Source: a virus
Lineage: Duplodnaviria; Heunggongvirae; Uroviricota; Caudoviricetes
DNA length: 64,000 bases
Virus record (IMG/VR): IMGVR_UViG_3300037312_000757
Reading direction: 5' to 3' (one strand)
The notes under the pieces: generated by a model
What the model was told of the DNA's origin: nothing
Seen by the model: the letters and a program-made list of their open reading frames with translations, nothing else
The model's database searches: none
Made by a program: the position numbers and the translations under genes
In this document: in pieces, positions 40,886-57,036 of the stretch
How positions within the stretch are numbered: the stretch's first letter is position 1
Layout: the number at the start of each line of letters is the position of its first letter

Positions 40886-41941
40886 TTATTGGGTCCCGCA
40901 CGTATCTTTGCCTCCCAATTGATTGGGAACAATCGGCTTGCCGTGCATCCAATGCTTGACCGTTTGCACATGATTGGGGCGAACATACTTGGCTACACTG
41001 TGGCGGAAGTCCGCATACGAGAAGCCGTCAGCAATACGCAGCACGTAACCTTCTTCGGTTACGGTGTCAAGATCAGTAGCCAGCTTACGCAGCTTTTGTT
41101 CATCGTAGATGCCATCGTAAATGACTTCTACGGGCGTGATGCTCATCAGCTCAAAATACTCTAGCGTGAGGTTCCAGGGCAAACAGAAGTTCTTGTCATC
41201 CCAGATCGAGAAGCCATAGAAGTACGACTTCAAGTCAGGATAAAAGATCGAATGCTCAGCGAACAAGTTTTCACCGCAGACGCGCCATCCCTCTGGAATG
41301 TCACCACAGATCTGACCCCAGAAGTTCTTCACCCAGTTGCGGCTAGGGTGATTACGACTGTCCACGCTACGTGCATGGATGTAGTCAGGATACATGGTTG
41401 TATTCTCGCCATCCATTTTCTTGGTGGCAATCACACGCTTGCCTGCGAAGTTGGCATTGCAAACATTCGGCGGCAGAACACGGTCATCGCTCGATGGCGT
41501 TGGTGACCAGGGCAGATGATATGTGCGCTGATACTTGACGTAGTGGGAGAACAACCCCAACACGCCACCTTGGGTAAGAATCTTCTGCACGCTTTCATCG
41601 TTGAACAGTTCGCCCTTCAGCCGTGTACCGTTCGGCTGAACCGGGTTGCCCCACTTGTCGTAGACTTGATCGTCGTACAAATGCGGCGGAATGATCACCT
41701 TGGTGATACCGCAAGCATGACGCACGTCTTCGACACTGATCTCAGTGGTCTCACACTTGATGTGATGTTCACTACAGACCGAGGCTCCATTGTCCAAATA
41801 ATAGCCACCGTCCGGCCATAGCCGACGTTCGAGAATGTGATGTGCGTCCTGCGCAGGTTTGTCGCAGAACACGCATTTGTTATTGTCACGCGCAAAAACT
41901 CCTTCGCGAAATTGATCACGCGTCAATAGCTTTTGACTCAT
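40886..41941 (-). CDS. HNH-like Zn domain fused to ATP-dependent RNA ligase
   Basis: CVFC...DAHHILER...VCSEHH; ligase motifs KMDGEN, CGEN, FYGF, EGYV, KYVR. Confidence 0.85.
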   Translation of the reverse strand: MSQKLLTRDQFREGVFARDNNKCVFCDKPAQDAHHILERRLWPDGGYYLDNGASVCSEHHIKCETTEISVEDVRHACGITKVIIPPHLYDDQVYDKWGNPVQPNGTRLKGELFNDESVQKILTQGGVLGLFSHYVKYQRTYHLPWSPTPSSDDRVLPPNVCNANFAGKRVIATKKMDGENTTMYPDYIHARSVDSRNHPSRNWVKNFWGQICGDIPEGWRVCGENLFAEHSIFYPDLKSYFYGFSIWDDKNFCLPWNLTLEYFELMSITPVEVIYDGIYDEQKLRKLATDLDTVTEEGYVLRIADGFSYADFRHSVAKYVRPNHVQTVKHWMHGKPIVPNQLGGKDTCGTQ

Positions 41942-56624: not shown

Positions 56625-56700
56625 AATGATCCGATGATAGCTTCATCTACCTCACAAATCAATAGAATGAACGAAGGACCCACGTAGGGTCCTTGTAAGT

Positions 56701-56980
56701 TGGCTCTGCAGGTGGGATTCGAACCCACAGCGAGAACGTTTCGCGAGGAATGAGCGCTCCCAGTGTTACCACGTACTCATGCATCACCCGCCGTTCCGGT
56801 CTTGCAAGACTTGCCAGGCTTCACCAACACAGCTTCGCACTTGGCCTAGAGGGAGTTTCACCCTCATCCTGTTACCTCTTTCGCGATAAGCCCCATGCTA
56901 CTAGGCGATGGCATACTTCGCTGGCGTTAGAGCAAGTGTACTGAGGCGAGCTACCGTACTTTCCTTTACACCACTGCAGA
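56701..56980 (-). ncRNA. 280-nt tRNA-like RNA with ~225-nt insert in place of the anticodon arm
   Basis: TCTGCAG/CTGCAGA acceptor + G-CCA, D arm with GG, GTGGG-TTCGAAT-CCCAC T arm; followed by a terminator-like hairpin. Confidence 0.8.
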
Positions 56981-57036
56981 ATAGAGTATTGATTATTGCG
57001 TAGATTCACACCGCAATCAATGCCTATTCACATAAG

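Follow-up and report, generated by a model that had tools for sequence, protein, structure and literature searches.

The DNA analysed here is a 64,000-nt stretch (the window) of a phage genome of 523,836 bp (~524 kb), which has direct terminal repeats and 47% G+C. On the minus strand of the window, running from 56980 to 56701, lies a 280-nt gene with the outline of a tRNA. Positions within it are given in element numbering, in which position p corresponds to window position 56981-p. The tRNA frame and the signals on either side of it are as follows.

56701-56980, minus strand: whole tRNA-shaped RNA gene, 280 nt including the encoded CCA; direct reading and ARAGORN -i give exactly the same ends.
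56974-56980, minus strand: 5' strand of the acceptor stem, UCUGCAG/CUGCAGA, partner at 56705-56711, 7/7 pairs Watson-Crick (element 1-7/270-276).
56956-56971, minus strand: D arm, stem GUGU/GUAC with two wobble pairs (element 10-13/22-25), loop AAAGGAAA (ARAGORN).
56712-56728, minus strand: T arm, GUGGG-UUCGAAU-CCCAC (element 253-269), perfect (direct reading and ARAGORN).
56992-57020, minus strand: promoter-like site TTGATT-17-AATAAT, ending 11 nt upstream of RNA base 1 (consensus scan, pattern match only).
56674-56694, minus strand: terminator hairpin (consensus scan), followed by CGTTCATTC and the next TTGATT promoter.

All elements that assign the gene to the tRNAs (acceptor stem, D arm, T arm and N73-CCA) lie in cloverleaf register: G73 falls at 56704 and the encoded CCA at 56701-56703 by direct reading, U8 is present, the D loop supplies A14, G18/G19 and A21, G26 follows the D arm, and A15 and U48 could form a Levitt pair. 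The T arm is shared with several tRNAs of the same phage. Neither ARAGORN with default settings nor the Rfam tRNA model (RF00005) calls a gene at this site, and it is with introns allowed that ARAGORN recovers the frame at exactly 56701/56980. An earlier note on this DNA had described just such a frame (acceptor stem, G73-CCA, D arm with GG, T arm), and direct reading together with the intron mode of ARAGORN shows it to be real; the ~226 nt that the note had placed between the D and T arms can likewise be read directly on the minus strand.

The gap between the flanking genes, 412 nt, has the same length in an independent Logan assembly (SRR35144446). On its upstream side the RNA gene is neighboured by a 107-aa ORF and the gene of a radical SAM enzyme, on its downstream side by genes for a protein with a cyclic-phosphate receiver domain and for an AlkB-like dioxygenase. 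The terminator starts 6 nt past the CCA and consists of a GC-rich 8-bp hairpin trailed by U-rich sequence, and the cassette to which it belongs (the hairpin AAGGNCCC...GGGNCCTT, then CGTTCATTC and a TTGAYT promoter) occurs at four sites in the genome (window 56664-56694 and, in genome coordinates, C1:264412, 313035 and 417677). Because this cassette is found at four places, the 3' boundary of the RNA coincides with a real phage signal, which looks like a phage-specific stop-and-restart signal. The gene itself is present in a single copy, on which ground a MITE or other mobile element was rejected. The phage carries ~60 tRNA genes and a permuted tmRNA of its own with the tag ANDNVFAMAA, and all twenty amino acids are covered by tRNA genes other than the 280-nt gene provided that an unusual tRNA-Trp(CCA), at C1:394703-394794, is included.

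Searched against Rfam 15 at gathering thresholds, the whole window returned no family at the feature, and searches relaxed to an E value limit of 10, with 901 nt or just the insert (236 nt) as the query, gave noise only (tRNA-Sec at 15 bits, snoRNA, lncRNA). These searches exclude detectable group I and group II introns, tmRNA, RNase P, Y RNAs, riboswitches, GOLLD and ROOL for the insert, with group I introns being subject to the uneven coverage of their subgroups in Rfam (RF00028); the blank up to E = 10 agrees with the earlier statement that no group I intron can be recognised. RNase P RNA, suggested by GGCUUAUCG and GGUGAAAC-like strings, was dropped because no RNase P model matched and because the order of the motifs is wrong. 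As for coding content, a 64-aa plus-strand ORF and small minus-strand ORFs had no PHROG match, and six-frame tblastn against the genome and the collected loci recovered only the shared terminator cassette and T arms.

That the gene is not a canonical tmRNA, as had been proposed, is supported on three counts: position 3-70 is U-A; the tmRNA models (RF00023 and the permuted RF04321) and the tmRNA mode of ARAGORN return no match at the site; and the phage already owns its permuted tmRNA (C1:182959-183462). Some 7 kb from the latter is a tRNA with a UCA anticodon (C1:190515-190591), which ARAGORN labels 'SeC', yet which is of normal tRNA length. Inside the 280-nt RNA there is a 27-codon ORF (window 56784-56867, minus strand) with GAGGU 6 nt upstream of its AUG. 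A tmRNA- or mRNA-like rescue RNA, charged at its CCA and using this ORF (56867-56784), would accommodate the ORF with its Shine-Dalgarno-like site, a low folding stability of the kind seen in mRNAs, and a genome that, according to ARAGORN, is rich in rescue genes. However, such an ORF with such a site arises by chance in about one case in six by our own estimate, the ORF's AUG and Shine-Dalgarno-like site fall in poorly aligned stretches of the homologue described below, and the blocks shared with that homologue resemble RNA motifs, not codons. Together with the lack of G3-U70, the blank tmRNA searches and the tmRNA already in the genome, these points make a rescue RNA extremely improbable, and the ORF is probably a product of chance.

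A tRNA-like module is part of the YrlA RNAs of bacteria and phages, and the neighbouring cyclic-phosphate receiver-domain and AlkB-like proteins have an RNA-repair theme, both of which would suit a Y-RNA-type partner of the Ro60/Rsr ring protein. Against such a partner, the 524-kb genome has no TROVE/Ro60 gene, Rfam gives no match to any Y RNA model, that of YrlA (RF02553) included, and the topology differs in that both ends of the RNA lie in the acceptor stem, not in a Ro-binding stem; the YrlA-type candidate was therefore rejected, and we regard a Ro60 partner of this type as very unlikely.

If the insert were an intron, its removal should leave an anticodon arm. We evaluated every single-stretch deletion of the gene, requiring a 5-bp stem and a 7-nt loop with U33 and a purine at 37, all in the right register, and obtained zero solutions for a canonical arm. 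With the same script, a control gene of this phage (C1:399516-399633) gave a single clean answer upon removal of 43 nt, namely CGUCC-AUUCCAA-GGACG, the arm of a tRNA-Gly(UCC) with U73; U73 is a Gly identity element. The exhaustive test thus bears out the earlier remark that no splice junction restores an anticodon. Furthermore, a search for an anticodon-type hairpin throughout the RNA found none apart from the T arm, and inspection by eye for a bulge-helix-bulge found no two 3-nt bulges on opposite strands. An anticodon-nuclease decoy, one of three roles that had been offered for this RNA, loses its footing in a molecule that has no anticodon-like loop.

The intron reading holds that a middle portion of ~196-226 nt is cut out, with phage or host proteins acting first and the phage's Rnl1/Rnl2-type ligases joining the ends, or else by the action of an unrecognised ribozyme, leaving a non-canonical tRNA. 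In its favour, ARAGORN -i offers a 'tRNA-Met(CAU)' with a 196-nt intron, a clean insert of 43 nt is present in at least one tRNA gene of the phage, unexplained tRNA introns are reported from Lak megaphages (PMC6784885), and the phage encodes both an Rnl2-family ligase (window 40982-41437; C1:447080-447535) and a T4 Rnl1-like ligase (C1:54078-54683). However, the product proposed by ARAGORN pairs at only 3 of 5 positions of the anticodon stem, has a pyrimidine, U37, at position 37 and lacks nucleotide 26, and because the program accepts 359 different, arbitrarily chosen artificial deletion products of the gene, its Met(CAU) call is not evidence. There is no group I or group II signal in Rfam, RtcB (PF01139) and the archaeal splicing endonuclease EndA (PF01974) are, like Ro60/TROVE, absent from the 524-kb genome, and the homologue conserves blocks and helices within the supposed intron. 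No excision restores a canonical anticodon arm. The 'novel intron' is the weakest of the three roles mentioned above, and we consider an intron-bearing tRNA unlikely; if the RNA is spliced all the same, it would need a splicing route not known in bacteria.

By folding energy, the insert is unremarkable. Its minimum free energy is weaker than that of 194 of 200 dinucleotide shuffles (z = +1.9), a crude two-layer fold allowing one pseudoknot yields z = +1.3, and the whole RNA folds at z = +0.7; in contrast, a giant tRNA-like gene from a relative (L059:11670-11896) folds at z = -3.95. The 'structured domain' of the earlier note therefore does not rise above chance by this measure, and most of the helices listed there are also at chance level: in 226 nt, around half a dozen complementary pairs of 5-8 bp are to be expected, by our own estimate, by chance.

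These values would suit a relic, i.e., a tRNA gene that suffered an insertion and a partial deletion of its anticodon arm and is now transcribed but functionless. The distribution of the gene points in the same direction. In close relatives, with identities of 82% and 73% in the radical SAM neighbour protein, the flanking genes are kept and the 280-nt gene is absent, the syntenic spot holding three small ORFs or a bare terminator instead, and the gene is thus a lineage-specific addition at a variable intergenic site. There is only one copy in the genome. No homologue was found among GenBank phages by blastn; pattern scans of IMG/VR gave nothing or chance matches, those of JGI metagenomes four matches that were all due to chance, and those of GTDB genomes no homologue, with a looser second pattern producing chance matches in GC-rich genomes. 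In five large IMG/VR records, the likeness was confined to the T arm.

A different route did yield a relative. Within a tRNA array of the phage there is a SegB-like GIY-YIG/NUMOD homing nuclease gene (L057:8628-9347; C1:396627-397346), which has thousands of metagenome relatives, some of them in the tRNA arrays of other huge phages, and we gathered such arrays through this gene. Three further contigs reached via the nuclease held no homologue. All collected loci were scanned for an acceptor and T-arm pair accompanied by a D arm, 85-420 nt apart, which produced nine oversized tRNA-shaped genes, six of which were compared with the element. One of these, L060:2674-2980 (L060a), is a 307-nt gene in a tRNA array on a 481-kb ENA contig, 6 nt after a tRNA-Asp. 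In insert-to-insert alignments, L060a scored z = 3.9 and the other five candidates -0.4 to 1.9; no significant likeness to the element was seen for L059:11670-11896, L060:12697-12985, L027 or L022. L060a, too, has no match in Rfam, and nhmmer alone makes no link between it and the element.

The two RNAs follow a common plan: the acceptor and U8 lead to a D stem of 4 bp that includes wobble pairs, N26-GUAG comes after the D arm, the domain (188 nt in the element and 211 nt in L060a) is followed by a hairpin (Hx), and 2-3 nt further on come the T arm and N73-CCA. The D loop AAAGGAAA, at position 14 in either RNA, is identical, and eight blocks occur in the same order and with similar spacing. 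The features brought out by the comparison are as follows.

Element/L060a positions of shared blocks: GCAUGGG 83/106; GGUKAAAC 119/136; AGGCCRARUG 134/151; GGAACG 184/205.
Element/L060a positions of shared blocks, continued: AGUACGUGG 204/228; GCGAA 237/260; GGUUCRA 256/283.
56892-56898, 56838-56847 and 56792-56797, minus strand: the shared blocks GCAUGGG, AGGCCAAGUG and GGAACG, respectively (from the comparison with L060a).
56769-56777, minus strand: invariant 9-mer AGUACGUGG, in the same order and with similar spacing in L060a.
56763-56950, minus strand: cargo domain (element 31-218), in the place of the anticodon arm; no Rfam match.
56945-56951/56786-56792, minus strand: domain-closing helix of 7 bp (element 30-36/189-195); 92% of cells pair, 2 compensatory and 2 one-sided changes.
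56849-56865, minus strand: hairpin GAGGG-UGAAACU-CCCUC (element 116-120/128-132), kept by RNAalifold; 90% of cells pair.
56731-56762, minus strand: hairpin Hx (element 219-226/243-250), with a 16-nt loop containing GCGAA, 2 nt before the T stem; kept by RNAalifold.

A pattern that joins four of the blocks matches only these two RNAs among 275 loci. When the frame, the GUAG and Hx are left out, alignment of the domains alone still gives z = 3.45 against 1000 dinucleotide shuffles, with an empirical P of 0.003 and a Gumbel P of 0.013. Allowing for the six comparisons made, support for homology is moderate, not overwhelming, such that L060a is a probable homologue of the element, and the two can, with moderate confidence, be treated as a two-member family united by the same frame, the D loop plus GUAG, ordered blocks (GCAUGGG / GGUKAAAC-N7-AGGCC / GGAACG / AGUACGUGG) and Hx before the T arm. 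With one probable homologue now at hand, the 'new RNA class' proposed in the earlier note becomes plausible.

To examine the pairing pattern, a structure derived from the element, and chosen partly for being shared, was scored on an alignment made with MAFFT alone: pairing holds in 90% of cells, with 15 compensatory pairs, compared with 40-50% and 0-3 when the partners are slid by 1-3 columns. In the acceptor stem, 7/7 pairs hold in L060a and 3 are changed on both sides; in the D stem, all 4 pairs differ yet pair, 3 of them by compensatory change; and in the T stem, 5/5 pairs hold, 2 being compensatory. Within the insert, the GAGGG hairpin becomes CUGG-UUAAACG-CCAG in L060a, with two compensatory pairs and a loop consensus of U-K-AAAC-N, so that the GAGGG/CCCUC helix is one of the earlier proposals to be kept in a homologue. 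Hx reads UAGGGGA/UCCCCUA with a 22-nt loop in L060a, where 6/6 pairs of its core hold, 2 by compensatory and 3 by one-sided changes, and it corresponds to the variable arm of class II tRNAs.

Other pairings that had been listed fared less well. The helix involving the AGGCC..UG block stands in part, since the same sub-domain is closed in both RNAs, but its register differs. The 'P2-like' helix GCUCGCCUCAGU/ACUGGGAGC and a GCGA/UCGC hairpin are not conserved and compete with the conserved hairpin at 219-226/243-250, their 3' strands belonging to Hx, and with the former the analogy to P2 of tmRNA fails. The pairings CGCCAGCG/UGUUGGUG and CAUCGCC/GGUGAUG find no comparative support, nor does the set of pseudoknots in the form originally listed. 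One pseudoknot may exist: AGUACGUGG can pair, through element 207-212, with element 149-154 in both RNAs, but the register required is shifted and is not reproduced by MAFFT; this pairing, if real, crosses the closing helix. Over the insert as a whole, the number of co-located helices of at least 6 bp is at chance level (5 observed vs 4.3 +/- 2.4 expected), and the RNAalifold result is not significant (z = -0.95; SCI 0.27 vs 0.20).

The absence of significant conserved nested structure, the unremarkable folding, the single copy, the close relatives that do without the gene and the pattern scans of IMG/VR, JGI and GTDB without a homologue are all what a relic would predict, its likeness to L060a then being due to chance or to shared decay. 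However, every element of the frame is perfect despite the supposed loss of the anticodon arm; the stems of the acceptor, D arm and T arm contain compensatory changes with respect to L060a, which point to selection on the frame provided that homology extends over the whole of both genes; the gene has a promoter-like site of its own and a genuine terminator cassette; and the collinear blocks lie within the insert, not just in the frame. We therefore rate a relic as rather unlikely, although it is, together with a protein-spliced odd tRNA, one of the main rivals.

Taken together, a frame under selection (given homology), conserved blocks, the lack of an anticodon and the lack of a plausible splice give the best support to a tRNA-scaffolded RNA: as we read it, with about an even chance of being right, the gene encodes an unspliced, stable, non-decoding RNA of class-II-like form that carries a conserved cargo domain. 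With one probable relative in another giant phage, the locus most likely specifies such a stable non-decoding RNA, not a split tRNA or a tmRNA. The gene would be transcribed as a separate unit from its own promoter to its own terminator, and the ends of the transcript would be trimmed by host tRNA enzymes, by RNase P at the 5' end and by 3' trimming or CCA repair at the other. The molecule would stay whole, the tRNA frame providing processing and stability, and the active part would be the cargo domain, whose most plausible partner is a protein or RNA belonging to the machinery of translation or RNA repair. Laboratory chimeras built on a tRNA scaffold are processed and stabilised like tRNAs and escape degradation (PMC3401473).

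The acceptor features that would bear on any charging of these RNAs differ between the two members, the element having U1-A72/G73 and L060a G1-C72/A73, and a conserved charging identity is thus not evident. SerRS and LeuRS do not read the anticodon in charging, so that charging is possible in principle. A bolder version, which we regard as a long shot, would have the two RNAs found a family of chargeable, anticodon-less class II look-alikes, the G73 member being charged by SerRS and the A73 member by LeuRS, that enter the translation or RNA-repair machinery via their tRNA half, where a doubly knotted cargo would act. If true, they would represent a phage-made modulator of ribosomes, of EF-Tu or of defences that target tRNAs, unlike tmRNA.

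Giant phages carry dozens of tRNA genes, and oversized ones are silently lost in automatic annotation; at least six exist in the source phage alone. If the RNA is kept whole, such genes would be natural 'tRNA scaffolds', by which a virus makes stable, correctly trimmed structured RNAs with the help of host tRNA enzymes, and a two-member family with conserved blocks offers a concrete object for tests of expression, charging and pull-down.

The other oversized genes are heterogeneous. The control gene of the excision test (C1:399516-399633; L057:11517-11634) is 118 nt long and is called Trp by ARAGORN -i, although tRNA-Gly(UCC) is the better reading; its 43-nt insert, whose ends pair (AAGAA/UUCUU), interrupts the anticodon stem between positions 29 and 30 and is too small for self-splicing. 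The 92-nt gene at C1:394703-394794 (L057:6704-6795), missed by ARAGORN by default, has the canonical Trp anticodon arm CUGGU-CUCCAAA-ACCAG and G73, but its D region is aberrant and its variable region 30 nt long; it is the only candidate for tRNA-Trp(CCA) in the genome. In a 121-nt gene (C1:400042-400162; L057:12043-12163), the stem CGAAA/UUUCG encloses 52 nt, folded as a rod and two hairpins, instead of a 7-nt loop, and no excision yields a loop with U33. Two more such genes are found at C1:411469-411592 (L058:7469-7592) and C1:395409-395504 (L057:7410-7505), one of the two having two extra hairpins in the variable region and the loop CGCUGAG, which lacks U33, and the other being of class II form with the 9-nt loop AUUUAUAUC. 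The tRNA arrays of two other phages of ~0.5 Mb hold giant tRNA-shaped genes of 227 nt (L059:11670-11896) and 289 nt (L060:12697-12985), both with a hairpin loop containing GUAAUG and neither matching Rfam or the element; in the latter, an insert of 204 nt has a canonical-looking arm (CGAGA-GUAAUGA-UCUCG) on its 3' side.

Among known systems, tmRNA (RF00023, RF04321) resembles the element in having a tRNA-like acceptor and T-arm domain, with a large insert between and possibly a pseudoknot, but it has no D stem and has G3-U70 and a tag frame, whereas the element has a complete D arm and U-A at 3-70. Lak megaphages (~540 kb) contain 'enigmatic', unclassified inserts in tRNA genes that likewise match nothing in Rfam (PMC6784885); there, alleles with and without the insert define the splice point and an intact tRNA, whereas no excision restores a tRNA from the element. 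With class II tRNAs (Leu, Ser, Tyr), the element shares a hairpin directly 5' of the T stem, at the position of the variable arm, and differs in the lack of an anticodon arm, in a hairpin loop of 16-22 nt and in a D stem of 4 bp. The engineered tRNA scaffold (Ponchon and Dardel; PMC3401473) has the same mode of action as proposed here and, as a laboratory construct and not a natural family, speaks to feasibility only. The nearest natural precedents, in a likeness of kind with no sequence relation claimed, are species 1 (rnaC, 139 nt) and species 2 (rnaD, 119 nt) of phage T4, which are likewise phage-encoded and non-decoding, lie among or near tRNA genes and are annotated merely as 'small, stable RNA'; the 3' end of rnaC forms a canonical T arm (CCGGG-UUCGAAU-CCCGG) comparable to that of the element. 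The element has three features of this kind, which is a loose one and not a curated family: it is phage-encoded, has a tRNA-like 3' domain and is non-decoding. Compared with rnaC and rnaD, it is twice as long and combines a complete acceptor, D and T frame with an encoded CCA, a promoter and terminator of its own, and a domain of ~190 nt.
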